64,000 bases of DNA, from positions 48,632 through 112,631 of the IMG/VR virus record IMGVR_UViG_3300045988_116681, one strand, 5' to 3'. Shown one piece after another: positions 2,312 through 63,992 of the stretch. Both the position numbers and the translations under genes were made by a program. Within the stretch, counting starts at the first letter, position 1, and each line of letters opens with the position of its first letter. The stretch comes from a virus. Under the pieces are notes generated by a model. That model had not been told where the DNA came from. It saw only the letters and a list, made by a program, of their open reading frames with translations, and searched no databases.

Positions 2312-3274
2312 TCACATTGATTTGCGGTCTTTGAACTCTGCGAGTTTGTGGTCTGCATACATGGTTCTGCCTTTGATTTTAGAATATCCCAAATATCCGT
2401 TCATTCTCTCAATACGAGTGATGTTTTTACTGCCACATTTAGGACATTCATCTTTATCAATGAAAGAAGCGCCACAATCTTCACAATAATCAAGCTGTAG
2501 ATTTACGCCTTCGTAGAAGCCCATATCCATTGCTCTACGAATAAGAGTTTTCATTGCTTCAATATTGTAGTCTGTAGTATAACGACAATATTGAATATTA
2601 CCACCATTGCATAGATGGAACATTGGATATTCAATATCTTGCTTTTGAATAGGTGAAATATCTTCCCATACACCACAATGGAATGAATTAGAAGTGTAAG
2701 GACGGTCAGATACGCCCTTAATAATGCCGTATTTCTTGCGGAACTGCTCGACTTGCAAACCGCAAAGGGATTCAGCAGGAGTTCCGTAAAGAGCGTATAG
2801 AATGTTGTCGATTTTCTTATACTTCTCAGCATAATCATTGATAAACTTCAAAACTTCAATGGCAAAAGTATTATCTTCAGCAATGGTTTTACCGTTATAC
2901 AGTACACTGGTTTCATTGAGTGCAGTAATACCAAAACTCATTGTCATAGGACGAAGGAAATCTTCGCCAATTTCTTCTTCTGGGTCAAAGTGACCGTTAA
3001 GGAAACCGCCTTGACAGAAAGCAAGTGGGTTAGTACCAGCTTTCTTGTGAGAAAGATAAGTAAATGTGCGCTTGTGAATAGCACGGCACATATCAAGATA
3101 ATAAGTTAGTACATCATAAAAATCCTTGTTTTCTTGCTTTGCTTTAGCAAGAATCATAGGAAAGTGAAGGGAAATTGCTCCGAGGTTACAACGCCCTTCA
3201 TATACAGGCTTGTCTTGGTCATCTGCGGGGTACATACCGCCACGCTCATACCAAGGTGAAAGATTTGCTCGACA
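2312..3274 (-). CDS. nrdD: anaerobic ribonucleotide reductase NrdD, 3' exon (C-terminal part with the glycyl-radical region)
   Basis: Begins CRANLSPW.., which completes the ..ISRMG|CR.. junction motif. Carries a C-terminal Cys4 cluster and the RMNGYLGY glycyl-radical motif. Confidence 0.85.
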   Translation of the reverse strand, partial: CRANLSPWYERGGMYPADDQDKPVYEGRCNLGAISLHFPMILAKAKQENKDFYDVLTYYLDMCRAIHKRTFTYLSHKKAGTNPLAFCQGGFLNGHFDPEEEIGEDFLRPMTMSFGITALNETSVLYNGKTIAEDNTFAIEVLKFINDYAEKYKKIDNILYALYGTPAESLCGLQVEQFRKKYGIIKGVSDRPYTSNSFHCGVWEDISPIQKQDIEYPMFHLCNGGNIQYCRYTTDYNIEAMKTLIRRAMDMGFYEGVNLQLDYCEDCGASFIDKDECPKCGSKNITRIERMNGYLGYSKIKGRTMYADHKLAEFKDRKSM

Positions 3275-4097
3275 CAAGGGAATTATATCCCTTAGACTAT
3301 ATCATAATTGTTTGGTCAATTCTTCGCGCTTCCATAGCAAGAATTGCACTTGCTATGTACTCTACTTGGTTACTTTCTGATACAACCCAAATTACATATC
3401 AGATACCCTTTTGATAGTCGTTTAACATACATATTCAAATTTGTAATTATCGAAGTAATTAGGACTTAGTTCGCCTTTTAGCACTCGCGCAATTTTGTGC
3501 CTATCCATATGTAAACATCTACCAGCTTCACGAATAGAAGTGAAATTTTGCACATTGCCTTCTTTGTTAATAGCGCGAATAGCCGTGTTGTTTTTGTGTG
3601 TTCTATTGCCACTATCCCAACCATGTTGTACATTATAAGCATTAGTACACCATTCAAGATTTTCAAGACGATTGTCTGTTTTATCAGAATTGATATGATT
3701 AACGTACTTATAATTGTTAGGATTTGGGATGAAACAATGTGCTAAGATAACATGAACTCGTTCATGTACAAAACTGTGGTCAGGTAAACTACGCATTACT
3801 TGCATATATCCATCACTGCCTTTATGTGGGGTGACTTGATTACCTGTGCGAGAGTTATAAAAGTTAAAATTTTCATCTACCAAAAATCCGTTGTATTCTT
3901 TATATTGCATTTTATCACCTTCTTTCATATAAAAAATCATTTGAATATGCTTAGCACAGCGATTATTTCATACTTTTGTATGAACCTTCCCTGTTAGCAG
4001 AGATATTAACAAACCATTTCCTGTTTGAACTTACGTTATCTCCACACCATATATTTATATGTTCACGAAGTTTTACATGGGCTATCGTGTCATTTCA
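3275..4097 (-). other. probable group I intron (823 nt) interrupting nrdD
   Basis: Exon 1 ends ..ATG GGT with T as its last base, followed directly by a stop. The insert ends in G just before TGT CGA (CR..). It carries a free-standing HNH ORF. The joined exons restore the conserved ..SRMGCRANL.. sequence. Confidence 0.65.
3422..3910 (-). CDS. NUMOD4/HNH_3 homing endonuclease (intron-encoded)
   Basis: YKEYNGFLVDENFNFYNSRTG (NUMOD4-like) and HVILAHCFIPNP..VNHINSDKTDNRLENLEWCT (HNH_3). ATG at 3910 follows AAGGTGA. Confidence 0.85.
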   Translation of the reverse strand: MQYKEYNGFLVDENFNFYNSRTGNQVTPHKGSDGYMQVMRSLPDHSFVHERVHVILAHCFIPNPNNYKYVNHINSDKTDNRLENLEWCTNAYNVQHGWDSGNRTHKNNTAIRAINKEGNVQNFTSIREAGRCLHMDRHKIARVLKGELSPNYFDNYKFEYVC

Positions 4098-5285
4098 ACC
4101 CATTCGGCTAATAGTTACACCATACTTTTTATAAATTTCTGGCGCATAACCGTCACCTGTACACGAGATAAAATCAGGGTACATACATTTGCTACTGCAA
4201 TCAATCGCTTCATCAAACAGCCATTCCAGTTCTTTACCTTCGCCGTGAAGTTCTTTATCATAAAGGAAACTTAGTTTAGGAAATAGTACAGGATGCTTGA
4301 AACCTTTCTTACCTTGTCCTTCCTTGCGTACCCTTAGGCAAACAGAAGATAGCATAGATTCCATACGGTCAGTGCCAAGACCAAAAGAAACAGCAGTAAA
4401 CGGATAATCGCCACGACTTGAAGCCACAGAATTAAACTTCATTTCCCATGCTTGGAAACCTTGCTCTGCTTCACGAGCAACTTTATTAAAAGCATAGGTA
4501 TCTGCCGCTTGTTCAAATGCCCTACTGTTTGTATTGCCTTGCCAATTATCTACGATTTCAAAATAATCTTGGTAATATTTTTCATAACTCTTTTGAGCGT
4601 AAGGAGCAAGTAGTTTATCAATTTCGCTGATTGTATAGCCACCATACTGAGCCGCCGCCATATTCATTGCAACATCAGCTACAAGGTCAAAAGCTACATC
4701 AAGGCTATGTGGTTCTTCATAATCGAGATTACCCATAGTAAAACCGCCAGTAAGGATTGACTTCATATCAGCAAGACAACAGTTTACGCTATCAAGTCTT
4801 GAGCCACGGTCGTGAATATAAATATAGCCTTCAGACATGGCTTGTTCTTCTTCGATAGTAAGGAAGAATTTCTTGTAAAGTTCGCTGTTTAATTCATTGT
4901 ACACAATAGCCTTTTGTGTGGTTACAAGAGCACTATCAGCATTAGCGTTGCTTCTATCTCCGATAAAAGATAGGGACAGCTTCTTGCTATATACCTTATC
5001 CAGCATTGAAGCAAAGGCACTCTTATTGTCACGATATTCACGATAAGATTTTGCTACTGCTGAATTAACCGAATCAAGAGCAACTTCTACCATATTGTGA
5101 ATAGTGCTGACAGGAACAGGAGTTTCATTGTACTGTAACTTGCCACGAACGGTTGATACAACCTTATCTTCATCATTCTTAGATAAAGGCATACATACAC
5201 GTTCTGCGCTTTTTTGGATAGCTTTGCGAATCTTGTTTCCGTCAAAATTTACGATAGCCCCATTCTTTTTAAGGACTTTAATCAT
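4098..5285 (-). CDS. nrdD: anaerobic ribonucleotide reductase NrdD, 5' exon (ATP-cone plus N-terminal barrel)
   Basis: MIKVLKKNGAIVNFDGNKIRKAIQ is an ATP-cone. The ORF stops one codon after ..ISRMG. Confidence 0.85.
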
Positions 5286-9081: not shown

Positions 9082-9854
9082 TTAATCATTATTATATTTT
9101 CCTCTCCACCTAAACAACTTCTCTGTTTTCTTAGGCTGATTATTCTTATTATAGTCAAGCGTTCTTCTCAATTCCTTTTCCCAGACAACTTCAAAATCGT
9201 CTGGCGCTTCTTGCTCGGAAATAAATACAATACATCTCTTAGAAAGTTCACGCATATATTCCCAAAATTCTTCGTGGTTAAAATCGCCAGTTGTATAACC
9301 AGTGGTTTTAGCATAAGGCGGGTCACAATATACAACCGCTCCATCTGGAATATCGACTTCACGATAATCAAGACAAGTAAAGTTGGCGTTTTGCACACCT
9401 TGTAAGTCACGAAGTAAGCTACGTTCCGCTCGGGCACAATAATTGTCACCTCGTTTATTACTTGCCAATCCACCAAACCACTTACCACCAAACGAACAGC
9501 CAAAACCAACAAAACCAGCTAACGCCTTATTCTCGTCTTTGTGCTCTTTGACGTAATAGTATTCTTCTTTAGTGATAATAGAAGGTGGTGTCCAGCCAGA
9601 TTGTAAGCCTTTCCACATTTCAATCAAATATGGATGTTTGTCATTAAGAATTTTGGTTTCTGCTTTTACTTTCGCTTCAACTGCACAAGACCCACAAAAC
9701 AGACTTACGAATGTCTGCCCCCCCCAAGTTCAAGGTGTGGTTGATAACTTGTGCAATCTGAGTTGAGATACGAGATTTTCCGCCCATGTATTGCATTGTT
9801 AATTACCTCCGAAATTTGTTTAGAAATACGAGATTTACCGCCTAAGTAACGCAT
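9082..9854 (-). CDS. Dam-like (D12 class) N6-adenine DNA methyltransferase, out of frame at a G8 tract in this assembly (candidate phase-variable gene)
   Basis: The body 9082..9627 carries DPPY. Upstream there are two ATGs (9854 and 9796), each encoding M(R/Q)Y(L/M)GGKSRIS... Motif I (FVSLFCGSCAV) is reached only with G7/G10 from ATG2 or G9 from ATG1. With G8 both reading frames stop. Confidence 0.8.
9718..9725 (-). repeat. G8 homopolymer in the 5' coding region of the Dam-like methyltransferase
   Basis: Counted C8 on the plus strand. Flanks read AACTT-G8-CAGACA on the sense strand. Confidence 0.95.
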
Positions 9855-9885: not shown

Positions 9886-10605
9886 TTATCTCATTTTAGT
9901 CGCTTTGTCAATACGCTCTTTGGCGATTTCAAAATAATTTTCATCAAGTTCCATACCGATAAAATTACGATTTGTATTGGCGCAAGCTACGCCTGTACTG
10001 CCAGACCCCATACAGTTGTCGAGAACGGTCATTCCTTCATTGGTATAGGTCTTAATTAGCCATTCAAGTAGGGCTACTGGCTTCTGTGTAGGATGAACAC
10101 GACTTGCGTCACGATTGAAAGAAAGAATAGACAACGGATTTCTTTCGCCGTTCTTGCTTTCGCTCCATGCTTGTTTTCTATCACCATAATTATCTGATAG
10201 CGAACCGTTCTTTGTACGAGTATAAGGCGTACTATACCAGAATTGCTTATTATATACTGGCTTTTTCTTATAGAAGATTGCAATTTCTTCATGAGACTTT
10301 AGTGGTTTTACATTGGCGTTAAGAAAATCACAGCCACGATTTTTATTCCAGACAAGATTATAACGCCACATCTTTGTGTTAGACAGCATAAGATTAGCCA
10401 TAAACAAGCCATCACAGAATAGAGCAATTACGCCATTGTTGGTGATGATACGATTGTACTGTTCCCACAACTTATCAAATGGAACAATCGTATCCCACTT
10501 ATTTTTGGTCGAGCCATAAGGCAAATCACATAGAATCATATCCACCGACTGGGGGGGGATATGGGGCATAAGTTCAAGGCAATCGCCATTCTTAATATCA
10601 ATCAT
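9886..10605 (-). CDS. DNA methyltransferase (N6_N4_Mtase family, beta class)
   Basis: DLPY follows the N-terminal domain. The C-terminus has VLDNCMGSGSTGVA (FxGxG-like) and IGMELDENY. Confidence 0.85.
   Translation of the reverse strand: MIDIKNGDCLELMPHIPPQSVDMILCDLPYGSTKNKWDTIVPFDKLWEQYNRIITNNGVIALFCDGLFMANLMLSNTKMWRYNLVWNKNRGCDFLNANVKPLKSHEEIAIFYKKKPVYNKQFWYSTPYTRTKNGSLSDNYGDRKQAWSESKNGERNPLSILSFNRDASRVHPTQKPVALLEWLIKTYTNEGMTVLDNCMGSGSTGVACANTNRNFIGMELDENYFEIAKERIDKATKMR
10551..10558 (+). repeat. G8 (C8 on the coding strand) homopolymer in codons 15-18 of the methyltransferase
   Basis: The coding strand reads CAT ATC CCC CCC CAG. The gene is in frame (ON) as assembled. Confidence 0.95.
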
Positions 10606-10633: not shown

Positions 10634-11155
10634 TTACTTCTTTTGAATTTCTTCAAAGACAATCTGCTTTGGTAGCATCTTATGGCATACATACACACTA
10701 CTGAAAGGTGGGTTAAGGCTGGGCTTCTGGTCTGCGTAGTCCTTGAAGTAAGCCACTCTGCGGTTAAGATACATGATTTCAAACTCATTGTTCTTAAACA
10801 TATCGAATCTTCGCTGAGATTCAAACAAGCCTACAACACCCACCAACATTGCGAACGGCTTGCCAATTTCAAACAGTCGTTCCAACACTTCTGTCTTGAC
10901 GCTATAAGGCGGATTGCTGATAATCATGTCGCACTGTGGTACTGGCGTTGTGAAAAAGTCCTGACCATTATCAATGTGCGTACAGATTACCTTGTTGCCC
11001 TGTGCTTTAAGCATTTTAACAAAGTGTGATTCTTCTGTGTCAAAAGGACACCATACTGTCAGTTGGGGGGGGGCGTAAACCAAGATAGGCTTGACCGCAT
11101 AGGGCGGTGTATAGAAGTTATCATTGCCAGAGCCAGCTACTTTATCCATTTTCAT
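10634..11155 (-). CDS. N6-adenine DNA methyltransferase (NPPY motif)
   Basis: Contains ISNPPYS and an N-terminal YTPP motif. ATG at 11155 follows GGAGAG. Confidence 0.75.
   Translation of the reverse strand: MKMDKVAGSGNDNFYTPPYAVKPILVYAPPQLTVWCPFDTEESHFVKMLKAQGNKVICTHIDNGQDFFTTPVPQCDMIISNPPYSVKTEVLERLFEIGKPFAMLVGVVGLFESQRRFDMFKNNEFEIMYLNRRVAYFKDYADQKPSLNPPFSSVYVCHKMLPKQIVFEEIQKK
11065..11073 (+). repeat. G9 (C9 on the coding strand) homopolymer in the 5' part of the NPPY methyltransferase
   Basis: The coding strand reads TAC GCC CCC CCC CAA. In frame as assembled. The plus-strand flanks GTCAGTT-G9-CGTAAAC resemble those of the tract at 25553. Confidence 0.95.
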
Positions 11156-19100: not shown

Positions 19101-20079
19101 AGTCCTTATAGTAATGCTTAATTTCAAATTCTGGAATCTTAGGCAATGCGGGTACACGAGTGGTCTTTTTAATGGTAATAGGCTGAACCTTGTCAGCAAT
19201 CTGATTAGTCGTGTCAAATAATACGTCAATCATTTCGTCATTAAAGCCACTTACATACATTTGTTCTCTAAGTTCTTGCGGAGTAAACAGATAGGTGGTC
19301 TGATAGAACTTCTCAGGTTCACGAGAATCACCGCCGTCTTTAGACTTTAGAAAAGCTGTATGAATCTTTCTATCTTCTGGACGCATGAAATGAGAATCAG
19401 TAGTAACAATAATAGGAATGTTTAACTGTTCATGCAACTTCCACAATGAATTGTTGACCTTAATCTGTTCTTCGTTATCTTCCCAGCAAGGCTGACATTC
19501 AAGATAGAAATTATCCTTGCCAAACGTTCGCCAATTCCACTGAATAAATTCTTTGGCTTTAGCCGTATCGCCAGTAAGAATGCACTTAGGCAAGAACCCG
19601 CCGATACATCCTGTGCTAACCGCCAAATGACCCTTGTCTTTACCTACGACTTCTTCAAAGTCTGAATAAAAACTTGGTCTGCGCAACTGACCTTTGTAAG
19701 TATAGCTTCTAAGCCATGCTCTTGCGGATAATTCATACATTTGCTTTAGACCAATCTCATCCAATACAATTACCAAATAATGCCAATAGTATGGACGGTC
19801 GTTTTCGCTAAAGCGCAGATTATCTTCTTCTTCTGACAGCAAATAAAACTCATTGGCAAAGATATGTTGGAACGGACGCTGTTTGTCCAAAGCATTGTAT
19901 GCTTTTTCAAGTTCTACATATCCGCTTACAGTTTGGTGGTCTGAAATAGCATAACCTCTCAGACCATTTTCATAGCACCAGTTTACACATTTAGGGATAT
20001 TGCAAATAGCGTCAGCAAAACGAAGAACAGCGGAACTGTATTCACTGTGATTGTGTAGTGAAGTATATGTGTTAATCAT
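16150..20079 (-). CDS. dnaE: DNA polymerase III alpha subunit (DnaE-type, PHP domain)
   Basis: 1309 aa. N-terminal PHP motif HNHSEYS, then polymerase core motifs. Confidence 0.9.
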   Translation of the reverse strand: MINTYTSLHNHSEYSSAVLRFADAICNIPKCVNWCYENGLRGYAISDHQTVSGYVELEKAYNALDKQRPFQHIFANEFYLLSEEEDNLRFSENDRPYYWHYLVIVLDEIGLKQMYELSARAWLRSYTYKGQLRRPSFYSDFEEVVGKDKGHLAVSTGCIGGFLPKCILTGDTAKAKEFIQWNWRTFGKDNFYLECQPCWEDNEEQIKVNNSLWKLHEQLNIPIIVTTDSHFMRPEDRKIHTAFLKSKDGGDSREPEKFYQTTYLFTPQELREQMYVSGFNDEMIDVLFDTTNQIADKVQPITIKKTTRVPALPKIPEFEIKHYYKDYYDKFPFVKYYATEGTLNERYYYYQVEKGLYEYNNIHPVNIEEYLAQINIEMEQVKGLGEAFDGECMADYFTVVQKVVDLIWTEGDSYVGIGRGSAGCYLTNKLLNITGIDPMLPETKEFYPWWRFCSIARSESIFDCDIDIQSFKKERIIQAIKDYFGWRRTCQCVTWGRLSAKTALERAATGLGISSDTVGYIKSLIPTVRGSIYSLKDCLYGNEKKGRAPVPEFVAEVKKYGDLLETALAFEGMIVSSGVHAGALNVLQGDYTETGSYMVSSNGAVCSQFNLHDAEYAGDLKFDLLSIDCLQTIRTCMELLLKNGKIEDKGSLRDTYNYYLSYDKLDKTTKEMWDLLPTMASAFQYDSKAGKEALRKIGAQNLTELTLANGLMRLAVADGEQPMDMYVRYRKNINEWYQDMTNYGIPQEEQEILKELLGNYCGLMIAQSTMMSVLMDERVCNFNLKESDKARKAVAKKNAEALAETEERLYRKGAECGRTKAFLDYLWKVQIEMSKSYAFDFSHSNEYSTECLQELNLYYKFPKIYWNAAVVITQAGVEDERDNVANTTDYGKIAGSVYKAKENGISVAPPPANHAEMSFGVDEANNTILFGLGGISSINAEIAQQIITNRPYSSFRDFYSRNSYQGTLITPSKFIQLIKAGCFDEFCPDRMRVMQAYFALSTPRKQTLTTANLAELQRIGCKLPNTLTMPLAFKKYVCSKQFLYGTHPKFKSKKIYWLDERALVFFDSMCRSQLEENVDWWYDEEGRTLVVDKSLEKLFKNVTEELKAYINQPEFLKMYNEQSIKARMRDKLPNMNVNHWSFEALSYYSNEHELACIDADRYNVTTFDKLPTEPVFVTKKYGKREWRQYQLSRIMGTVIARNDAHSTITVLDSNNNVVQARFDNHSYPFYKQQISEQHADGTKTVMDTSWFTRGQGLVLTGYRSEDTFRVKSYKNSIFPHKLQKILTINEDDGTMELQSYRYGYEPKEE

Positions 20080-20596
20080 AATATTTTAGTCCTCTTTCTT
20101 GCCATTCTTTAGGCATTTTAGTAACCCTGTTAAGCCAACGCCAAACTGTTGGTGGATTCATATTGTTGTGTTGTTGACAAAATTCTGGCAGTGAATGATA
20201 AATTATACCGTCACAAACAATGGATTTTTGAACATGAGTTGTTTTAACGTTCTTTCGACCTTTTGCGATACGATGGCAATGCTGTGGTGTATTGTTATTT
20301 TCTGTGCTGGTTGTCCAATACAAATTATCAGCACGATTGTTTGTCCTTATTTCGTCTTTATGCCCTACCTGTGGAAGATGGTCAGGGTTAGGGATAAACG
20401 CTTCAGCAACAATACGATGCAACAAACAAAGTTTCGTTTTTCCGTAATTGCAACGTGCCAATCTTAAACTTACATACTGATTATTTCCAATATAGGTAGA
20501 CATAATTTTGTTTGTAAATAAACTTTTAACTCTACCAAGATTGCTCACTTGATAGAATCCTTCATAACCTACAACGTCTTTCCAAATTTCTTCCAA
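20072..20596 (-). CDS. NUMOD4/HNH_3 homing endonuclease (free-standing; overlaps the dnaE start)
   Basis: EEIWKDVVGYEGFYQVSNLGRVKS (NUMOD4) and HRIVAEAFIPNP..VGHKDEIRTNNRADNLYW (HNH_3). Probable TTG start at 20596, 8 nt after AAGGAGG. Confidence 0.8.
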   Translation of the reverse strand: MEEIWKDVVGYEGFYQVSNLGRVKSLFTNKIMSTYIGNNQYVSLRLARCNYGKTKLCLLHRIVAEAFIPNPDHLPQVGHKDEIRTNNRADNLYWTTSTENNNTPQHCHRIAKGRKNVKTTHVQKSIVCDGIIYHSLPEFCQQHNNMNPPTVWRWLNRVTKMPKEWQERGLKYYD

Positions 20597-20645
20597 TATC
20601 AACCCCTCCTTAAAACAAAAATGGGAATAGCTTTTCACTACTCCC

Positions 20646-20674
20646 ATTCTATCACATATCTATTTACTTGTCAA
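20646..20674 (-). promoter_or_regulatory. sigma-A-type promoter
   Basis: TTGACA-17-TAGAAT with TGTGA upstream of the -10. Confidence 0.6.
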
Positions 20675-24730: not shown

Positions 24731-25216
24731 TTATCTCAATCCGTAGATTGTTTGAATTACTGGTGCGGGGAAATGCTCTGTATCATATTGGGATAAATAT
24801 ACTTCGTCAAGTTTAACTGAAGAATCAAGCCTTGAAGTCGAATCACTGTAAATATTTCCTTGAGCATCATAAGCAAGACCTTGAATCACTGTGTTCCACC
24901 ATCTCCAAGAGGTCGTTCCAACACATTGTGTACATCTATTAAATGTCATACAAAAACTATTATCTTCAGTAAACAAATGATTGCCACGATACGAGTAAAT
25001 AAACAAATAATATGAGTTTGAAGTAAGAGCGACATATTGTAAAGCCACGCCCTTAGGTACAGTAACAACATTCATTACAGAAGCGTAAGAATCATAGTCA
25101 ACAAAATGTGAATAAGTGCCTGTGCTTGTGATTTCTCGCTGACCAATAATATTCCAACCCAATCCATTAGAAGCGGGTGGAGTATAAGCATCTGAAAGCA
25201 TTACTTTTGCGTTCAT
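24731..25216 (-). CDS. hypothetical 161-aa protein, downstream partner of B4
   Basis: ATG at 25216 (MNAKVML..) sits in an ATGA context. It is the end point of the stop-free -1 frame that runs across B4. Confidence 0.6.
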   Translation of the reverse strand: MNAKVMLSDAYTPPASNGLGWNIIGQREITSTGTYSHFVDYDSYASVMNVVTVPKGVALQYVALTSNSYYLFIYSYRGNHLFTEDNSFCMTFNRCTQCVGTTSWRWWNTVIQGLAYDAQGNIYSDSTSRLDSSVKLDEVYLSQYDTEHFPAPVIQTIYGLR

Positions 25217-25238
25217 GCTACCACCCCGCTTTCGGAGT

Positions 25239-25544
25239 TTAGTGGAATAATAGCACTTGGATTCCATACCAATTTGTGAGACAATTCAAAGTAATATCGT
25301 GTTCTGTTATGCTGACAACCATCCGATTTGCGTTTTGAGTATAAAAATAGCCTGATTGCACAAAGGTTTCTGCAACGTATTCTGTTGATAAAGAAGGATA
25401 CAAACTTCCGCTTACCACAATCATTTTCACAGGAGCGTTGAGAGGAATCACTTTGTTGATACCCTGCTCTAATTCCCCTATTTCGACTGTTGTTACTTGA
25501 AGTGCTGTACCTTCCAACATTTCCTTCATTACTTTTGCATCCAT
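25239..25544 (-). CDS. family B small protein (B4)
   Basis: MDAKVMKEMLEG... It is a paralog of the proteins at 32610, 34998 and 40870. Confidence 0.6.
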   Translation of the reverse strand: MDAKVMKEMLEGTALQVTTVEIGELEQGINKVIPLNAPVKMIVVSGSLYPSLSTEYVAETFVQSGYFYTQNANRMVVSITEHDITLNCLTNWYGIQVLLFH

Positions 25545-25552
25545 TACTTACG

Positions 25553-25559
25553 CCCCCCC
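25553..25559 (-). repeat. G7 homopolymer 8 nt upstream of the B4 ATG
   Basis: Sense strand reads TTCAGTT-G7-CGTAAGTA-ATG. Confidence 0.95.
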
Positions 25560-25611: not shown

Positions 25612-25656
25612 TCAACGTAAGCCCCCCCCCAGTGAAACAATGGTTTGGTTCTTCAT
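25612..25656 (-). CDS. leader ORF L6 (14 aa as assembled) containing a G9 tract
   Basis: AAGGAGG, 9 nt, then ATG. It translates to MKNQTIVSLGGGLR*, and the stop lies inside the hairpin GCTTACG-ttgagcg-CGTAAGC. Confidence 0.45.
   Translation of the reverse strand: MKNQTIVSLGGGLR
25622..25630 (-). repeat. G9 homopolymer in leader ORF L6
   Basis: Counted C9 on the plus strand. Confidence 0.95.
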
Positions 25657-32167: not shown

Positions 32168-32590
32168 TTATGCGACTTTTATCCATTCTGTAGGATAACC
32201 AATAATTATTTTTGCAGTCGAAGAAGCAAAATAATCTTTTGCGATTTCTCCTTGCTTTTTAACATATATAATTTTATATTTAATTGTAAAATTATATGTT
32301 CGAGTAAGCGGAGTGCGAGAATAAATTTGTATACCAAATCCAACTTCTTTAGAATTGAGATATAGAGAATTATCGTCAGTAGTATAATAACCCGGTGGTT
32401 CTACATCTACTGTACCGCTTACCCACTGTAAGCCCACAGCAGTGTCTATTCCTAATAATTGAAGTGAAGCAGACGTACCATTTATGAAAGTATTGTTTAT
32501 TGCTAATTCAAAAGTTCCTTCATATACGCCCAACTCCGCAATGCCAGTATCAATTCCTTTACTTCCAAGGTGATTGACGATACTATTCAT
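32168..32590 (-). CDS. family A small protein (A, partner of B1)
   Basis: MNSIVNHLG... Own SD GAGGTGA. The start sits in an ATGA context. Confidence 0.65.
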   Translation of the reverse strand: MNSIVNHLGSKGIDTGIAELGVYEGTFELAINNTFINGTSASLQLLGIDTAVGLQWVSGTVDVEPPGYYTTDDNSLYLNSKEVGFGIQIYSRTPLTRTYNFTIKYKIIYVKKQGEIAKDYFASSTAKIIIGYPTEWIKVA

Positions 32591-32976
32591 GCAATCACCT
32601 CGTTTCTATTTAATAGAACGCTACTGCATAAGCCGAGTCTTTCCCTTGTAAATGGTCTATGGTCATTGTTTTGCCAGCGAATGTTACATCTATATAATCG
32701 TTTTCTGAGTTGGAGTCGGCATAATGGTAAGTTGTTGTTTGTTCGGAATAATAAATGCTTACTGAATATCCGTAATTGTATCCACTGGCAGAATAATACA
32801 TACTTAAAGAAACAAATTTCGGGACGTGAGAGAAAGTAAATTTTATTTCTTCGTTGTAGGCTTCTGCTTCTTTGTATTCCGCAGTTAAGCCTTGCACTTG
32901 TAAAGGCTCTCCCATAATCTTTCCGTTCATCTACTCTGCCCCCCCCAAGTCTCATTGAGGTTTGCATATTATACAT
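32587..32976 (-). CDS. leader ORF L2, which as assembled (G8) continues through all of B1 in the -1 frame and stops on the start codon of the A gene
   Basis: This is the same frame as track ORF 32587..33030. ATG at 32976 follows AAAGGA. Its TGA (32587-32589) overlaps ATG 32588-32590. Confidence 0.4.
   Translation of the reverse strand: MYNMQTSMRLGGGRVDERKDYGRAFTSARLNCGIQRSRSLQRRNKIYFLSRPEICFFKYVLFCQWIQLRIFSKHLLFRTNNNLPLCRLQLRKRLYRCNIRWQNNDHRPFTRERLGLCSSVLLNRNEVIA
32610..32930 (-). CDS. family B small protein (B1)
   Basis: MNGKIMGEPLQVQGLTAEYKE... A paralog of the 40870 protein (shared ..GLTAEY.. and ..VTF(A/S)GK.. segments). Confidence 0.65.
   Translation of the reverse strand: MNGKIMGEPLQVQGLTAEYKEAEAYNEEIKFTFSHVPKFVSLSMYYSASGYNYGYSVSIYYSEQTTTYHYADSNSENDYIDVTFAGKTMTIDHLQGKDSAYAVAFY
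32939..32946 (-). repeat. G8 homopolymer 8 nt upstream of the B1 ATG
   Basis: Sense strand reads GAGACTT-G8-CAGAGTAG-ATG. Confidence 0.95.
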
Positions 32977-33002
32977 ATTGCTCAAATTCCTTTCTGAGCA
33001 AT
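32977..33002. repeat. inverted repeat ATTGCTCA-10 nt-TGAGCAAT
   Basis: The TTGAGCAA motif in both orientations. The loop contains the leader SD. Confidence 0.8.
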
Positions 33003-33026
33003 GAGAAGGAGATGAAGGATAAAAAG

Positions 33027-33356
33027 TCAAGACAAAGTGCCTAATTCAAGATACTTAAAATAGGGTGAAATTGAATTATTATAATAGTTTTCAACCTTGA
33101 AATGCCCCTCCCCGAAATAGAACCACACCGCAGGACTATTTTCGCCAAAGGCACCATACGAGAACTCTATTACTTCCTTAAAAACACTCACTTTACCAAT
33201 CATTACGCTGTTGTCGGTCATCATCAACTTAAAATATAAACTCGCATCTGTTGTTGCAATTTTTACAACTGAGCTACCTTCTGCTACATCTTGATGAATA
33301 GCACTCTTAAAATGAATTGTTCCTTCTACACCCTTACCTGTTACAATCCCATCCAT
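33027..33356 (-). CDS. family A small protein
   Basis: MDGIVTGKG....LELGTLS. Confidence 0.65.
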   Translation of the reverse strand: MDGIVTGKGVEGTIHFKSAIHQDVAEGSSVVKIATTDASLYFKLMMTDNSVMIGKVSVFKEVIEFSYGAFGENSPAVWFYFGEGHFKVENYYNNSISPYFKYLELGTLS

Positions 33357-33406
33357 CAGCCGACACTTCCCTTCATGCCAGCCATCTCATTGCTCATATT
33401 AAATTT

Positions 33407-33469
33407 TAGGAGAATGCTAACGCATTGCCCCCCCCAACCGAAGTCAGGGTTGACTGAATGTTAAACATA
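33407..33469 (-). CDS. leader ORF L1 (20 aa as assembled)
   Basis: AAGGAGAA, 4 nt, then ATG. It translates to MFNIQSTLTSVGGGNALAFS*. Confidence 0.45.
33429..33436 (-). repeat. G8 homopolymer in L1
   Basis: Counted C8 on the plus strand. Confidence 0.95.
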
Positions 33470-33514
33470 ATGTTCTCCTTTTTGTGTAGTTATATTTGAG
33501 CAATGAGTAGAGGG

Positions 33515-33859
33515 TTATTCTAACAACCCAAAATCCACCGAGGAAATATACAAAGACAAATTATTATTGTTAAAACCAAAACCAACATATTCTATTCCTT
33601 CAGTATTAGTATAATCTATGCTAAACGAAGGAGAGTAGTCGCCTGAACTATTTCTAAAAGTAAAATAATTAGTACCTCTTAAAGTTTCATACTTAAAAAT
33701 GCTAATTTGTCCATATAAATCAACGATTTTAACATATGGCGCAATTCTGTCTACAAGAAAGTTAATATGGAACGTATTTAACGCATCGTCTTTATATGAT
33801 TTTTTACTCATGAATGTCAAAGCATTAGCAGTAAATGGCTTATTAACAATCCCATTCAT
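33515..33859 (-). CDS. family A small protein
   Basis: MNGIVNKPF....VDFGLLE. Confidence 0.65.
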   Translation of the reverse strand: MNGIVNKPFTANALTFMSKKSYKDDALNTFHINFLVDRIAPYVKIVDLYGQISIFKYETLRGTNYFTFRNSSGDYSPSFSIDYTNTEGIEYVGFGFNNNNLSLYISSVDFGLLE

Positions 33860-33969
33860 ACAGTCACCTGCTTTCGGTGACTCACATTGCTCAAATATTC
33901 AGTTGTTAGGGAGTTATTGCCCCCCCCCAAGTGAAGCATAAGTTCACTCAGAGAAAACTTGATACGCAT
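33856..33969 (-). CDS. leader ORF L3 (37 aa), terminating in ATGA on the start of the A gene
   Basis: AAGGAGTG SD. It translates to MRIKFSLSELMLHLGGGNNSLTTEYLSNVSHRKQVTV*. Its TGA overlaps ATG 33859. Confidence 0.5.
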   Translation of the reverse strand: MRIKFSLSELMLHLGGGNNSLTTEYLSNVSHRKQVTV

Positions 33970-34003
33970 GGTATCACTCCTTGTTGTTTAATTGAGCAAC
34001 GTG
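33883..34003. repeat. 12-bp inverted repeats (1 mismatch) CACATTGCTCAA / TTGAGCAACGTG flanking leader L3
   Basis: Arms at 33883-33894 and 33992-34003. Confidence 0.8.
33920..33928 (-). repeat. G9 homopolymer in L3
   Basis: Counted C9 on the plus strand. Confidence 0.95.
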
Positions 34004-34013
34004 TGTGATGTGA

Positions 34014-34415
34014 TTAGGATTTTAAGGCAAGCGCTAAATAGAAGCGAGTACCATCTTGGACATTATTTTTGAACAATCGGCATATTATACCAGTATTGAT
34101 AATGTTAAAATCACAATAATAAATATCGCTTGTTCCATTTGTAGTACCCGTTTTATATATTTTAGAACTTAATAAAACATGATTGCTTGTACTGCCACCT
34201 ATAACATCAGCCTTATACTCATATATAGATAGACACGGTGAAGCATAGTACCACGCATTGTCACAACCAATAAGCAAAAGCTTGCAACTATTGTGCGATT
34301 CTTCGTACCAATATAGTATCTGAAATTGTTCACTGGTAGCTTCTGCGGTGATAATATCATCAACATTGATACTTATGTCAGCCAGTTCAGCCAGCTTATT
34401 CACAATCCCATTCAT
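34014..34415 (-). CDS. family A small protein
   Basis: MNGIVNKLAEL... ATG at 34415; the track ORF begins at the GTG one codon earlier. Confidence 0.65.
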   Translation of the reverse strand: MNGIVNKLAELADISINVDDIITAEATSEQFQILYWYEESHNSCKLLLIGCDNAWYYASPCLSIYEYKADVIGGSTSNHVLLSSKIYKTGTTNGTSDIYYCDFNIINTGIICRLFKNNVQDGTRFYLALALKS

Positions 34416-34493
34416 CACATGACCCCCTTACTTGCGTATAGGAGGTTGCCAATCCTGTTGCTCAAAGGAAAGGCGTTAATGACCATTAGAAGG

Positions 34494-34532
34494 TCAGAAG
34501 AACGCCCCCCCCAAGTTAAAGCGAAGGTTCAT
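34494..34532 (-). CDS. leader ORF L4 (12 aa as assembled)
   Basis: AAAGGAGAA SD. It translates to MNLRFNLGGAFF*. Confidence 0.4.
   Translation of the reverse strand: MNLRFNLGGAFF
34505..34512 (-). repeat. G8 homopolymer in L4
   Basis: Counted C8 on the plus strand. Confidence 0.95.
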
Positions 34533-34588
34533 AATTTTGTTCTCCTTTGTTTAATTTTGAGCAACATTAGATGGGTGGTTAGATTGAT

Positions 34589-34978
34589 TTATCCAAACAC
34601 ATAATAATGAACGTTTTTTATTTTGCCACTTTGATTATTCAAATGAAAAGTTATTTTATTGTTTGAATAATCATAGTTCAAATTTTCTATGTCTATAGAA
34701 GAATATCGCACATAAGTTGGGTTGTCACCATCATATTCATAAAGTCTATATGAAAACCCCGAAGTTGAGTTGAGTGGAATCATTTGAACAAATTGCGCTC
34801 TAATTAACATAGATGACGGATTTGGAATAACCACTACTGCCATCGCTTGTGCGTCTATTGGCAATGATTGAAAATCAAAAATAGGAAGTGATACTTCATG
34901 AATGTTACTTGAATAACTACCTTCAAATGAAAAACACTTGTTTTGATTTACAAGTACAGGATTCACGATACCATTCAT
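34589..34978 (-). CDS. family A small protein (partner of B3)
   Basis: MNGIVNPVL... ATG at 34978 in a TGATG context. Confidence 0.65.
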   Translation of the reverse strand: MNGIVNPVLVNQNKCFSFEGSYSSNIHEVSLPIFDFQSLPIDAQAMAVVVIPNPSSMLIRAQFVQMIPLNSTSGFSYRLYEYDGDNPTYVRYSSIDIENLNYDYSNNKITFHLNNQSGKIKNVHYYVFG

Positions 34979-34997
34979 CAAGCCACCCCCTTGAGGG

Positions 34998-35309
34998 TCA
35001 GCCTAAGAATGTCACCAATAAGGGGTCGCTTACGTTGTTGTATTCTATCCGAACAGTGCCAACAGAATAACGAACTATCTGCACTCTTGCTGAAGTAACA
35101 CTTTGGTCTATTAAATATAATTTGTCTGCCGAAAGTAAAGGTAAATAAATCATTGCACCTATCAACGCACTTATGTTGTCTACACTTATTGTGCAAAATA
35201 AAGGTGTTACATCGAAGCCAAAAGTTAGCCCTCTGGTAATGGATTTTGCTTGCAATACTTTTAACCCGCTCATGGATTTTTCTACTTCTTGAATAATCTT
35301 TCCATCCAT
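34998..35309 (-). CDS. family B small protein (B3)
   Basis: MDGKIIQEVEKSM... ATG at 35309 in a TAATG overlap with leader L5. Confidence 0.6.
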   Translation of the reverse strand: MDGKIIQEVEKSMSGLKVLQAKSITRGLTFGFDVTPLFCTISVDNISALIGAMIYLPLLSADKLYLIDQSVTSARVQIVRYSVGTVRIEYNNVSDPLLVTFLG

Positions 35310-35410
35310 TAGTACGCCCACCTCTCTTGTTGCTCAACCGAGAGGTAATCATCGGTGGGCTTACTTGGCGTATGCCCCCCCCAGTGACGGGGAGTTTTAG
35401 TCTTAATCAT
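35309..35410 (-). CDS. leader ORF L5 (33 aa), terminating TAATG on the B3 start
   Basis: GGAGAA SD. It translates to MIKTKTPRHWGGHTPSKPTDDYLSVEQQERWAY*. Confidence 0.45.
   Translation of the reverse strand: MIKTKTPRHWGGHTPSKPTDDYLSVEQQERWAY
35375..35382 (-). repeat. G8 homopolymer in L5
   Basis: Counted C8 on the plus strand. Confidence 0.95.
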
Positions 35411-35422
35411 ATGTATTTCTCC

Positions 35423-35830
35423 TTACATATTGTCTACAATTTCATGCATCTTATCTTCTAAATGAATTGCAATGAACGATAGTAACGCCCATGCAAAGCA
35501 GAAGAATAGATTGCACTGTCCAAAAAAGAAGGTAAATGGTAAGTGGCTGTAGTCCCACACACCCATGTGTAAGATATTATTCAGCACTACACCAGTCAAT
35601 CCTTCAAGAACCGTGATAACCACAGTTCCAATTACTACTTGTTGCCATTGCTTGTATTGGTGTTTTCCTTCATTTAGCAATCCTACAATGACGAAACATA
35701 AGCCGCCGAGAACTGCCATAGTCCAGTTGGTTGGTTTACCCTTCCAAATGGTTTCGATGGCGAAGTAAATCCCGCCACCCATCACACCAAATAGCGCATG
35801 AACAAGTATTGAATTTAGTTTATGCTTCAT
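35423..35830 (-). CDS. polytopic membrane protein
   Basis: Four or more hydrophobic helices. ATG at 35830 lies just after the upstream stop. Confidence 0.55.
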   Translation of the reverse strand: MKHKLNSILVHALFGVMGGGIYFAIETIWKGKPTNWTMAVLGGLCFVIVGLLNEGKHQYKQWQQVVIGTVVITVLEGLTGVVLNNILHMGVWDYSHLPFTFFFGQCNLFFCFAWALLSFIAIHLEDKMHEIVDNM

Positions 35831-40487: not shown

Positions 40488-40847
40488 TTATTGTAAAGTT
40501 CCAACTGCGATTTTGGAAAGTATACTATTTATTTGTATATTGGCATTGATTTGTACAAAATTAGCATTTATATAATATTGTGTGCCTACATAAATTTCTG
40601 CTATACCTCCCCAATTATCACTGTAAAAACGAATTGTGGTATAATTTGAAGATTGCAGTGTGCTAAGTTGTAACATAACACTACTATCATAAATTCCATA
40701 AATTATTATATATTTTTCTTTATGGTTTTCTTCTTGCATAATAGAAGTGGTATAACGACTTGAAGTTACTTCAGACAAATCATAATATTCTTCAGCCACA
40801 AAAGAAACATCAGACAGAACAGGCGATTGCGCGATAATTGCATTCAT
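40488..40847 (-). CDS. family A small protein (partner of B2)
   Basis: MNAIIAQSP....IAVGTLQ. SD GAGGTGA. ATGA context. Confidence 0.65.
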   Translation of the reverse strand: MNAIIAQSPVLSDVSFVAEEYYDLSEVTSSRYTTSIMQEENHKEKYIIIYGIYDSSVMLQLSTLQSSNYTTIRFYSDNWGGIAEIYVGTQYYINANFVQINANIQINSILSKIAVGTLQ

Positions 40848-40869
40848 GCAATCACCTCATTTCTGGCGG

Positions 40870-41193
40870 TTAGAAGAAGCCTACTGCAAAAACCTTGCTT
40901 GCACTGACTGAAGATAATTCTATATTTTTCCCAGAAAATGTTACATAAAATGAATTGGTTTGTGAACCTTCCAAAGCGTAATACACATAGCAATTGTCTG
41001 GAAACCATGCTATATTCACGCTGTATGCTGCGTTTGAAGTGTACCTTTGAGGACTCCAAAGTGTTAGGCTTACAAAACTCGGCGCTTGGGAAAAAGAAAG
41101 CGTGACTTCTTGTTGATGGACTTCTTCTTCGAGATACTCTGCCGTCAGCCCGTTTTCCTGCTCCACAAATTCCTTCATTACTTTTGCGTTCAT
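40870..41193 (-). CDS. family B small protein (B2)
   Basis: MNAKVMKEFVEQENGLTAEY... Confidence 0.65.
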   Translation of the reverse strand: MNAKVMKEFVEQENGLTAEYLEEEVHQQEVTLSFSQAPSFVSLTLWSPQRYTSNAAYSVNIAWFPDNCYVYYALEGSQTNSFYVTFSGKNIELSSVSASKVFAVGFF

Positions 41194-41201: not shown

Positions 41202-41209
41202 CCCCCCCC
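41202..41209 (-). repeat. G8 homopolymer 8 nt upstream of the B2 ATG
   Basis: Sense strand reads GCGAGTT-G8-CAGATTAA-ATG. Confidence 0.95.
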
Positions 41210-41243: not shown

Positions 41244-41294
41244 TCACCGTGTAAGCCCCCCCCAAGTGAAACGGAGGTTTGGTAAATTGAACAT
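41244..41294 (-). CDS. leader ORF L7 (16 aa as assembled)
   Basis: AAAGGAGGA SD. It translates to MFNLPNLRFTWGGLTR*. Confidence 0.45.
   Translation of the reverse strand: MFNLPNLRFTWGGLTR
41256..41263 (-). repeat. G8 homopolymer in L7
   Basis: Counted C8. Followed by the hairpin GCTTAC-acggtgat-GTAAGC. Confidence 0.95.
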
Positions 41295-47518: not shown

Positions 47519-47549
47519 TGAAATCTCTCCTTCGTTTCTTGATGTGCTT

Positions 47550-47578
47550 ATTGTAACATGGCACAAGCCAAAAGTCAA
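47550..47578 (-). promoter_or_regulatory. sigma-A-type promoter
   Basis: TTGACT-17-TACAAT. Confidence 0.65.
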
Positions 47579-63951: not shown

Positions 63952-63992
63952 CAATAATCACCACCTTTCGGCAGTTGATTACTTAACCAATG

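Follow-up and report, generated by a model that had tools for sequence, protein, structure and literature searches.

The DNA analysed here, referred to below as the window, is a stretch of 64,000 nucleotides from a ~110-kb phage of gut Clostridia (IMG/VR record IMGVR_UViG_3300045988_116681, positions 48,632 to 112,631), whose relatives are found within Oscillospiraceae and Lachnospiraceae genomes. On its minus strand we found a group of methyltransferase genes that contain long homopolymeric runs:

10634-11155, minus strand: MT3, putative N6-adenine DNA methyltransferase (PF13651-like), 173 aa, with NPPY at residues 81-84
11065-11073, minus strand: MT3 switch, a C9 run; C9 is ON, C8 and C10 are OFF
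9886-10605, minus strand: MT2, N6_N4_Mtase (DPPY-type, CcrM-like), 239 aa, E = 8e-33
10551-10558, minus strand: MT2 switch, a C8 run at about codon 17; ON as assembled, OFF with the C9 of assemblies L001 and L203
9082-9854, minus strand: MT1, Dam-family (D12 class) methyltransferase, TIGR00571 dam, 4e-18
9718-9725, minus strand: MT1 switch, a G8 run in this Dam-like gene; OFF as assembled

The MT3 ORF extends from the ATG at 11155, preceded by the Shine-Dalgarno sequence AAGGAGAG, to the stop at 10634. The C9 homopolymer occupies codons 28-31 in frame, where the coding strand reads TTG GTT TAC GCC CCC CCC CAA CTG ACA GTA TGG (LVYAPPQLTVW); on the plus strand, 11058-11080 reads GTCAGTT-G9-CGTAAAC. 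Both the sequence and the intact frame of 173 aa agree with an earlier note on this DNA, which had described an NPPY gene with a C9 run, ON as assembled. In a simulation of the frame, C9 gives 173 aa, C8 31 aa, C7 37 aa and C10 38 aa; hence, a change of a single unit toggles between a full-length and a truncated product. The run lies within an ORF, and its length is sufficient for slippage, which for G/C takes about 7 units or more.

The catalytic motif (D/N)PP(Y/F/W) is present in MT3 as NPPY, and the protein resembles the EcoRI_methylase family PF13651 (21.5 bits, E = 1.6e-4, below the gathering cut-off of 26.4). Its homologs number more than 4000; many of them, named 'hypothetical', have a precomputed match to PF13651, and one has a match to PF05869. 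Searches with MT3 gave no match in NCBIfam and no significant match among PDB sequences (best E = 0.31). MT3 is probably a small orphan NPPY methyltransferase, and methyl transfer is its presumed activity. Around it lie other methyltransferases, small ORFs without annotation, and a RecD-like helicase, and no restriction-enzyme domain was found in the scanned ORFs. As these ORFs thus offered no cognate restriction subunit of a restriction-modification system, we did not classify the gene as a phasevarion.

The N terminus of MT1 consists of two tandem YxGGKSRIS modules in different frames, an arrangement kept in assemblies L169, L170, L201, and L202. G7 gives an isoform of 237 aa starting at ATG 9796, and G9 one of 257 aa starting at ATG 9854. 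A fourth methyltransferase with a run (MT4) is present in relatives only. On same-clade backbones, MT1 (G7, G8, or G9), MT2 (C8 or C9), and MT4 (G7 or G8) vary independently of MT3.

The window contains exactly 13 G/C runs of at least 7, the number given in the earlier note, with lengths of 7-9 and no runs of 6. Compared with 200 first-order Markov simulations, runs of 8-9 are in ~70-fold excess (12 observed versus ~0.17 expected; 9 versus 0.13 for length 8 and 3 versus 0.04 for length 9), and shorter runs are depleted (0 versus 3.7 for length 6, 10 versus 18.7 for length 5). The spectrum is thus bimodal, with a surplus at 8-9 and a shortage at 5-6. No A/T run in the window is longer than 7; G/C runs, in contrast, concentrate at 8-9. 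Ten of the tracts are found in leaders located upstream of small paralogous genes:

25553-25559, minus strand: leader-proximal G7 tract; the ATG of paralog 25239-25544 follows 8 nt downstream; G8 in the L081/L084 ortholog
25622-25630, minus strand: G9 tract in leader ORF MKNQTIVSLGGGLR (ending in a stop), with a strong Shine-Dalgarno sequence (AAGGAGG)
32939-32946, minus strand: G8 leader tract; the ATG of paralog 32610-32930 follows 8 nt downstream
33428-33435, minus strand: G8 leader tract; G9 would overlap the leader stop with the next ATG (TGATG at 33356); G9 in the L082 ortholog
33920-33928, minus strand: G9 leader tract, leader end ATGA on the start of gene 33515-33859 and therefore coupled as assembled; G8 in the L082 ortholog
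34505-34512, minus strand: G8 leader tract; G7 would overlap the leader stop with the GTG at 34418
35375-35382, minus strand: G8 leader tract; with G7 the leader enters a stop-free +2 frame across paralog 34998-35321
41202-41209, minus strand: G8 tract; the ATG of paralog 40870-41193 follows 8 nt downstream
41256-41263, minus strand: G8 tract in leader ORF MFNLPNLRFTWGGLTR (ending in a stop)
63993-64000, minus strand: G8 tract truncated at the edge of the window, with a further paralog (MNAIVVGKI...) downstream

These ten tracts are copies of one regulatory cassette, in which TTGCTCAA is followed by a Shine-Dalgarno sequence, an ATG, and a short ORF with TCACTT-Gn-CA, then by TTGAGCAA and by the ATG of a member of the paralog family. 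The leader tracts share this cassette among themselves, and they share their flanks because the cassettes were duplicated; common origin is, as judged from the sequence, the right explanation for all ten. The paralog family had no match in PHROGs, Pfam, or NCBIfam, and a homology search retrieved only relatives at 87-92% identity. In predicted folds, the leader G runs pair with CCUCC-like stretches. The inverted repeats TTGCTCAA and TTGAGCAA were also considered as an invertible switch of a XerC/D-like recombinase. However, no inverted copies were found among relatives, and for this reason an RNA stem is the more likely role.

The length of the MT3 run is polymorphic. Across the seven same-clade assemblies it is C9 in the window, L001, and L203 and C8 in L002, L200, L201, and L202, with the ORF outside the run intact in all of them, i.e., length differs among near-identical genomes in which the gene is otherwise preserved. 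The same site varies from C7 to C10 in other clades, and in the near-identical L017 and L018 the run lengths are unlike at five of seven sites. The tract-bearing homologs that were checked comprise 8 ON and 15 OFF alleles, close to the one-third expected of a free-running phase. In relatives from cultured hosts, the tracts are once more located within DNA-modification genes.

It is likely, in our view, that the MT3 C9 run is a hypermutable homopolymer contingency locus in a permissive loop, that it originated in place, and that its leader-like flanks come from a clade-level context. Slipped-strand mispairing during replication would add or remove a C, with C9 keeping the MT3 frame and C8 or C10 ending it early (31 and 38 aa), and MT1, MT2, and, in relatives, MT4 would flip by their own runs, independently of MT3. 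Since neighboring methyltransferases would switch independently, a phage population would be a mix of methylation states. Slippage is the presumed mechanism, and the differences between these consensus assemblies are the basis on which switching within one population, and its rate, are presumed as well. The function may be bet-hedging between hosts that attack unmethylated DNA and hosts whose restriction is directed at methylated DNA, variable self-methylation most plausibly hedging methylation-requiring against methylation-dependent host defenses. Phages of the SPbeta group encode DNA methyltransferases as a protection from restriction by the host. By DnaE, the nearest cultured relatives of our phage are SPbeta-like Bacillus phages and Enterocloster phage PMBT24 (33-39% DnaE identity), likewise large Firmicute phages with a DnaE-type polymerase. 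A megablast search of cultured phages with the methyltransferase region gave no match; the only relatives are distant ones, at the protein level.

The same run lengths could be read in other ways. Long G/C runs are able to support slippage of RNA polymerase or the ribosome, and programmed frameshifting or transcriptional slippage on C8-C10 might yield a full-length enzyme at any DNA length, as could be suspected from the fact that the assembled alleles are mostly OFF though the ORFs remain intact. However, recoding sites have a constant length and sequence, and here lengths of 7-10 are found among near-identical genomes; the fixed length, conservation in relatives, and permanently closed zero frame of such a site are not what we observed. 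In addition, about a third of the alleles are in frame, as a free-running DNA switch would give, the type of repeat differs by lineage or the repeat is absent, and a conserved downstream stimulator was not seen in the MT3 coding sequence, so that recoding seems very unlikely. Another reading is that the lengths are assembly or sequencing errors, the gene being uniformly intact or uniformly broken in all phages. Homopolymers are indeed error-prone and the evidence comes wholly from assemblies, but runs of 7-10 appear at the same sites in dozens of independent assemblies, cultured isolates included, and the same OFF length recurs in several independent contigs (e.g., L077, L079, and L080). The limit of 7 for A/T runs, as opposed to G/C runs at 8-9, is a property of the genome, and because such G/C-specific clustering would not arise from sequencing error, we consider an artifact extremely improbable.

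Phase-variable methyltransferases are textbook knowledge in bacterial pathogens, while hypermutable switches in phages have only just been recognized. Among the former are the phasevarion Mod genes of Haemophilus, Neisseria, Helicobacter, and Moraxella and the polyG Type IIG gene cj0031 of Campylobacter jejuni (PMC4889913; PMC4209511). As in these systems, a 5' simple sequence repeat would toggle the frame of a methyltransferase and create methylation heterogeneity in a clonal population. Unlike them, the orphan methyltransferases described here are encoded by a phage and lack a restriction partner in their vicinity, three or four classes stand side by side with a run in each, the same loops have repeatedly gained different types of repeat, and MT1 has two productive phases by means of its duplicated N termini. 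In Fletchervirus phages, the tracts reportedly concern receptor-binding genes, and the host itself uses polyG; the tracts in our phages of gut Clostridia are found in DNA-modification genes and leader ORFs. Hypermutable polyG tracts in these Campylobacter phages are a precedent (Sorensen et al. 2021, Cell Rep 35:109214, as cited in PMC12823448), and there too poly-G/C runs in the phage genome reportedly lead to phenotypic diversity among the progeny. A further precedent are the contingency loci of coliphages T2, T4, and other phages (Gomez, Barrick and Waters 2025, bioRxiv 10.1101/2025.10.21.683753), in which homopolymers of phage genes likewise act as reversible frameshift switches for bet-hedging against host defense. 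That study counts all homopolymers of at least 6, which are near the compositional expectation in AT-rich phages, and a search of its text turned up neither methyltransferases nor flanks nor leaders. Our phage differs in its distinct G/C class of 8-9, the depletion of shorter runs, and the lineage-specific flanks. What we describe is a set of three adjacent methyltransferases of different classes (plus a fourth in relatives), each with what would be its own slippage switch, in a phage of a gut anaerobe. The recurrence of poly-C, poly-G, and GA repeats in the same loops is strong comparative evidence of selection for variable phage self-methylation, and many of the apparently frameshifted genes in gut virome assemblies may be OFF phases.

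As regards the origin of the MT3 tract, tract-less homologs have an equally long loop (KY[IL]KPNSx[IV]W versus VYAPPQLTVW), which indicates that nothing was inserted. Tract-bearing homologs form at least 4 or 5 separate lineages with unrelated flanks in a neighbor-joining tree; one of them has poly-G on the coding strand in place of poly-C, and the equivalent loop in MT1 homologs of other phages contains poly-G or (GA)n. Given these separate lineages and the repeats of the MT1 loop, independent expansion is recurrent. The MT3 tract, to judge from these alignments, grew in place in a hypervariable N-terminal loop in which several lineages gained repeats separately; the run would have been produced there by substitution and expansion, without the acquisition of a cassette. 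Relative to tract-less homologs, whose loop is equally long, the tract is not an insertion, and likeness to any leader stops within ~8 nt. This equal loop length and the lack of motif enrichment around short runs led us to reject the idea that a G run was inserted at a target word. Gene conversion of MT3 by the 25553 leader was not supported either: six of the seven clade members read CATAAGC next to the run, and the similarity ends within the same ~8 nt. The window has two private substitutions beside the MT3 run, one of which raises the match to that leader while the other lowers it. The earlier note had favored a common origin of the tracts, or a sequence-specific process, over thirteen independent expansions. 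Common origin holds for the ten leaders, as a duplicated cassette, but not for MT3, and the same-length tract-less loop and the several independent lineages speak against a common origin of the MT3 tract with those of the leaders.

The likeness of the flanks that had suggested this origin is nevertheless real. The minus strand at 25553-25559 reads TTCAGTT-G7-CGTAAGT, and the flanks quoted in the earlier note for this leader and for MT3 both agree with the sequence, as do the words AACTT (9718 and 34505), CACTT (33920 and 41256), GACTT (32939), and GAGTT (41202). MT3 and the 25553 leader share 11 contiguous flank matches, compared with a maximum of 8 among 569 short-G-run sites and 65 controls sharing the T..C neighbors. 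Their likeness is confined to approximately -8 to +6 (14 of 24 positions over ±12, p = 0.025-0.046), and CGTAA, the 3' half of the exact match, is private to the window. We then scored sites with a position weight matrix made from the leader flanks only. MT3, MT1, and the MT4 of a relative outscore every control, or almost every one, both in a set of 1304 and in a set of 142 that are T..C-conditioned (p <0.001 to 0.014, varying with tract and null), and the result stands with the 25553 leader left out of the matrix. The clade consensus of MT3 outscores the MT3 of the window, and MT2 flanks do not fit the clade motif (p ~0.2-0.6). The similarity is significant against the controls, antisense MT3 included, and it is found in close relatives. 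The clade-level context is approximately TTCASTT-Gn-CAYA, inherited by cassette duplication among the leaders and convergent in three of the four methyltransferase tracts.

At seven of nine sites, in non-homologous genes and with antisense MT3 included (p = 0.008), another low-GC lineage (Flintibacter muris L089 and L061) follows a consensus of its own. The motif is absent from a sister lineage of ~50% GC with orthologous tracts, short runs show no excess of it, and 34 independent sites of other clades follow no flank rule except avoidance of A, which is next to long runs in only 4/34 cases at -1 and 6/34 at +1. These three observations give no support to a general sequence-specific generating process, the other explanation offered earlier, and no sign of a tract-seeding process was found. 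The lineage-specific convergence, seen in two low-GC lineages and in both orientations, is a testable handle on whether sequence context tunes homopolymer switching.

One possible, if unlikely, cause is a lineage-specific process at the DNA level that shapes or homogenizes the ~20 bp surrounding each run, whatever its orientation; the runs would still be slippage switches, and their flanks would not be independent. The process might be short-patch ectopic conversion or template switching, with a nascent G/C run re-annealing at another run, or a phage or host factor that recognizes TTCASTT-Gn-CAYA and tunes slippage. It would account for the rank of MT3 (antisense), MT1, and MT4 at or near the top of both control sets, for the higher score of the MT3 clade consensus, and for the separate consensus of the F. 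muris lineage beside a ~50% GC lineage with no motif. In relatives, the orthologous leaders have altered flank bases that nevertheless remain inside the motif, and the phage encodes a protein with an AAA_24 domain, a family that includes Sak4-type phage annealing proteins. A cause at the RNA or peptide level was rejected for MT3 because the tract is antisense, and the folds of the leader runs do not apply to it. On the other hand, the likeness does not extend past approximately -8 to +6, the two private substitutions are unlike conversion from the 25553 leader, MT2 does not conform, short runs lack the motif, conserved codons dictate part of the MT1 and MT3 flanks, and no candidate factor was identified. 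That low-GC gut-Clostridia phages in general have a ~20-bp lineage context imposed at the DNA level, in either orientation, by template switching or conversion or by a slippage-setting factor seems rather improbable to us. If true, the switches would be a coordinated, actively maintained system and not independent accidents kept only by selection.

The likeness of the methyltransferase tracts may instead be chance combined with ordinary constraints, such as avoidance of A, AT-rich composition, codon choice, and a conserved Tyr. The base before short G runs is already T in 52-65% of cases, A is shunned next to long runs in all clades, the GTA of CGTAA is the conserved Tyr codon beside the MT3 run, and the AAC and GTAAG of the MT1 flank are conserved Asn and Val-Ser codons. 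Furthermore, coding-strand tracts read (W/L/R)GGQ, which reflects codon choices for Leu/Trp-Gly-Gly-Gln, the 5-mer ASTTC is over-represented genome-wide (z = 6.9), and the comparison was made post hoc. However, the nulls already allow for T..C or Y..Y neighbors and real k-mer usage, and even so three of the four tracts outrank every control or almost every one; a second lineage shows the same independently, and the codon arguments differ between sense and antisense tracts, while the DNA motif is identical. Coincidence is therefore also unlikely.

Other roles for these sequences were considered and rejected by eye. A leader-like small ORF through the G9 on the plus strand would have only a GTG with no Shine-Dalgarno sequence (VSKGHHTVSWGGA, ending in a stop), and TTCACT-(run)-N8-TAAG, taken as a sigma-70 promoter with the run in its spacer, matches the -10 element at only 2-3 of 6 positions. 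TAAG itself occurs within 20 nt 3' of 7 of the 13 runs, against a background of 9% (P = 6e-5, post hoc). We did not adopt it as part of the DNA motif, since these are mostly TAA stops that close OFF frames or Val-Ser codons of MT1.

The C9 run in MT3, the NPPY gene among the window's three adjoining methyltransferase genes, is a probable slippage switch on a putative phage methyltransferase; the mechanism is ordinary, while the setting and the comparative pattern are unusual. The plus strand at 11058-11080 reads GTCAGTT-G9-CGTAAAC and the coding (minus) strand TTG GTT TAC GCC CCC CCC CAA CTG ACA GTA TGG (LVYAPPQLTVW). The run occupies codons 28-31 of a 173-aa ORF (ATG at 11155, stop at 10634) with a ribosome-binding site, AAGGAGAG, upstream of the ATG and NPPY at residues 81-84. 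The frame is intact with C9 and meets a stop after 31 aa with C8 and after 38 aa with C10. On re-reading, the site and the flank words quoted in the earlier note for the other tracts were right in every detail, including TTCAGTT-G7-CGTAAGT at the leader tract 25553-25559 (minus strand). The three genes, ON or OFF according to whether the frame is intact or broken, are:

9082-9854, minus strand: MT1, Dam family, G8, OFF as assembled
9886-10605: MT2, DPPY-type N6_N4_Mtase, C8, ON as assembled
10634-11155, minus strand: MT3, NPPY, C9, ON as assembled

MT3 is a putative enzyme: its Pfam match to EcoRI_methylase is below threshold, and no match was found in NCBIfam or among PDB sequences. Its family is very large and highly conserved (about 172 aa), and many members hit PF13651.

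MT3 alleles came from the IMG/VR relatives and from a scan of a metagenome collection with fixed anchors flanking the site. Three of the seven window-clade assemblies carry C9 (the window, L001 and L203) and four carry C8 (L002, L200, L201 and L202), the ORF apart from the run being intact in all seven. On window-clade backbones MT1 has G7, G8 or G9 and MT2 has C8 or C9; in other clades the run orthologous to the MT3 tract ranges from C7 to C10, and two near-identical contigs, L017 and L018, differ in run length at five of seven tracts. Among the tract-bearing MT3 homologs checked for frame, 8 were ON and 15 OFF, close to the one third expected for a free-running switch. Judged from these sequences, the length variation is the signature of slipped-strand mispairing at a putative contingency locus. 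A fixed recoding site is unlikely, as neither the length variation nor the ON/OFF share is what such a site would show.

MT1 is a predicted switch with three states, two of them productive. Its N-terminus has two tandem YxGGKSRIS modules in different frames (9718-9854, minus strand): G7 gives a 237-aa isoform from the ATG at 9796, G8 is OFF and G9 gives a 257-aa isoform from the ATG at 9854. This arrangement is conserved in five genomes (window, L169, L170, L201 and L202), and L202 has G9, in frame from the upstream start. Relatives also carry a fourth methyltransferase-like gene that the window does not have, MT4 (MNILIACEESQTVCKAFRELGG|RCFSCD...; L084 at 24582, L002 at 13889, and L201), with a run of G8 (OFF) or G7 flanked as GAGTT-Gn-CGTT.

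The comparison indicates that the MT3 tract originated in situ, and did so repeatedly. Homologs without a tract read KY[IL]KPNSx[IV]WCPFD at the site, and since their loop is as long as the window's VYAPPQLTVWCPFD, the run is not an insertion. Tract-bearing homologs fall into at least four or five lineages in a tree built on the protein downstream of the loop and have unrelated flanks (CCA-C9-GTG, ACA-C8-GCC, GTA-C10-GCA, CTG-C7-GAA), and one clade (L003/L004/L057) has a coding-strand G6-G7 in the loop instead. MT1 tells the same story. Across phages, its loop between YxGGKSRI and FVSLFCG holds nothing, poly-G of 7-12 or (GA)n, and the AAC and GTAAG that flank the MT1 run in the window correspond to conserved Asn and Val-Ser codons, which tract-less homologs have as well. 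The N-terminal loop carries (GA)n or G7-G12 in L174, L176, L178 and L192, and in L179-L191 and L193; L180 and L183-L187 have, in addition, a G8-G11 run some 10 nt before the start codon.

Tracts are also found in DNA-modification genes of elements in cultured hosts. In Flintibacter the genes affected include a C5 methyltransferase, a DPPY N4/N6 methyltransferase and a fragment with NPPY; in Dysosmobacter they include a PP-loop/PAPS-reductase-like ORF and a C5-methyltransferase region in which five G runs lie. That region (L095, Dysosmobacter segnis BX15, 10.8-12.4 kb; C5-cytosine methyltransferase, GSPCQDFSIAGK) has five separate runs, several needing +/-1 for an open frame, and there may be multiple switches inside one multi-domain enzyme.

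The earlier note had proposed that shared flanks on both strands reflect a common origin or a sequence-specific process. Common origin is right for the leader tracts, ten G runs in or just after very short ORFs with a strong Shine-Dalgarno (for example MKNQTIVSLGGGLR and stop), which are duplicated copies of one cassette, as their shared architecture and the flanks kept in relatives indicate. Each cassette runs from the octamer TTGCTCAA through an SD-ATG-leader ending in TCACTT-Gn-CA to TTGAGCAA, the reverse complement of the octamer, and then to the ATG of a paralog; relatives hold further copies with the same flanks.

For MT3, the flank likeness is real but short-range and clade-specific. 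It shares 11 contiguous flank matches with the 25553 leader, against a maximum of 8 among 569 controls, and over +/-12 nt its best match is 14/24 (p = 0.025-0.046). A weight matrix derived solely from leader flanks was used to score the methyltransferase tracts alongside 1304 short-run controls. It gave MT3 11.3 in the window and 14.2 as the clade consensus, MT4 9.4 and MT1 8.6. Both MT3 versions and MT4 lie above all controls, including 142 with T before and C after the run, and for MT1 p is 0.0008 with all controls and 0.007 with the T..C set. When the 25553 leader is dropped from the matrix, no control scores as high as MT1 or either MT3 version, and p for MT4 is 0.0015 to 0.014. Significance against background thus stood for MT3, MT1 and MT4, at or near the top of the controls, but not for MT2, whose flanks do not match the leader matrix with or without that leader. 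The exact CGTAA match rests on two private window substitutions, because six of the seven clade members read CATAAGC 3' of the run where the window reads CGTAAAC; one of these substitutions raises the leader match and the other lowers it.

A sequence-specific process as a general rule is not evidenced. At 34 independent tract sites in other clades the sole regularity is avoidance of A beside the run (-1: T 15, C 15, A 4; +1: T 16, C 12, A 6; P ~0.015 for each). Orthologous tracts in the ~50% G+C Dysosmobacter-type lineage gave no flank motif (leave-one-out p all >0.07), and short G runs carry the motif no more often than expected (7 observed, 6.9 expected). The flank word without the run, A[CG]TTC, occurs genome-wide on both strands 366 times against 258 expected (z = 6.9).

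In a second low-GC lineage (Flintibacter muris L089 and L061), seven of nine sites, lying in non-homologous genes, follow a separate consensus, TT-Gn-CA[AG]; the lineage's antisense MT3 tract is one of them (p = 0.008). Flanks thus converge within low-GC lineages in both orientations, and the convergence is real. Coincidence together with codon and composition constraints is a possible explanation; the GTA inside CGTAA is the conserved Tyr codon of MT3, and coding-strand runs in these lineages read (W/L/R)GGQ, although the codon-level cause this hints at cannot hold for antisense runs. The convergence could possibly also stem from short-patch conversion or template switching from one run to another, or from selection on a DNA-level context that tunes slippage.

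The genes behind the leaders form a divergent, fast-evolving family of 100-180 aa with a conserved N-terminus (MNGIVN, MNAKVM, MDGKII):

24731-25544, 32168-35352, 40488-41193 and 63592-63954, minus strand: paralog family, genes under leader-tract control

They match nothing in Pfam or PHROGs, and a search of 5.8 billion proteins returned only relatives at 87-92% identity. Just four of 65 ORFs of at least 100 aa have a stop-free +2 frame (40870-41193, 32610-32930, 25239-25544 and 34998-35321, minus strand; genome mean, 11.8 stops per 100 codons), and these are exactly the paralogs directly behind a G run. In three of the four, the open frame ends in ATGA/TGATG on the next paralog start (40847, 32590, 34978); for 25239-25544 this is seen in orthologs only. 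This arrangement persists in relatives (L081/L084, L083), including those whose protein has diverged. It resembles a bypass lane, by which, in one tract phase, leader ribosomes would translate one gene in a junk frame and stop at the start of the next. At 33340-34560 and 35300-35440 (minus strand) the leader stop falls on the next gene start (ATGA, GTGA, TGATG) at particular run lengths only: 33920 is coupled as assembled (G9), and coupling would take G9 at 33428 and G7 at 34505. The Shine-Dalgarno sequences downstream sit in hairpins (CCTCTC..GAGAGG; GTCACC..GGTGAC). These features suggest that translational coupling of the leader to the next gene is governed by run length. TTGCTCAA and TTGAGCAA bracket each leader ORF (33990/33880, 33500/33400, 34565/34450, 33005/32990, minus strand), extend to 10-11 bp in some cassettes, and pair as a long-range stem in the only fold to span both arms (33852-33998). 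Invertible DNA was discarded, as relatives showed no inverted copies.

In the window, 13 G/C runs reach 7-9 and no run has a length of 6; a similar bimodal spectrum is found in a subset of related phages of 38-50% G+C. The depletion of runs of 5-6 with an excess of 8-9 is consistent with selection against accidental switches. A/T runs reach a maximum length of 7.

Table. G/C runs in the window, observed and expected from 200 Markov simulations.
Length 5: observed 10, expected 18.7
Length 6: observed 0, expected 3.7
Length 8: observed 9, expected 0.13
Length 9: observed 3, expected 0.04

Repeat-controlled methyltransferases are well known in bacteria, as in phasevarions and cj0031 of Campylobacter jejuni (PMC4209511, PMC4889913); the phasevarion label does not fit the MT3 array, where no restriction partner was found in the ORFs scanned. 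Hypermutable tracts have been reported in Campylobacter phages (Sorensen 2021, as cited in PMC12823448) and, very recently, in T-even and other phages (bioRxiv 10.1101/2025.10.21.683753), a text search of the latter turning up no mention of methyltransferases, flanks or leaders. Four features set the present case apart: an array in which every orphan phage methyltransferase has a run to itself, the convergent and repeated acquisition of different repeat types in the same loops, runs that form a sharply separate length class, and lineage-specific flank contexts.

The window (38.8% G+C, nearly all genes on the minus strand) is the replication and early region of a large phage. Its other genes include:

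DnaE-type polymerase, RecD-like helicase, RecJ, DnaB and Toprim primase
2312-5285, minus strand: NrdD (anaerobic ribonucleotide reductase), split
amidase and SLH-domain protein
HNH endonucleases
AAA_24-domain protein
46682-47578, minus strand: XerC/D-like tyrosine recombinase, weakly matched by DNA invertases

The recombinase might serve a temperate phage as its integrase. Among cultured phages, those of Enterocloster are closest (DnaE identity 39%), and IMG/VR contigs of about 114 kb encode proteins 91-99% identical to the window's. MT3 relatives occur in Oscillospiraceae and Lachnospiraceae genomes, including Flintibacter muris, Dysosmobacter segnis, Hominicoprocola fusiformis and Acutalibacter caecimuris. 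NrdD consists of two ORFs with a 172-aa ORF in between, possibly an intron or homing endonuclease. A NUMOD4-HNH endonuclease (20072-20647) abuts DnaE, and in the relative L084 (10001-15606) the DnaE match covers 5.6 kb versus 3.9 kb, which suggests an insertion.
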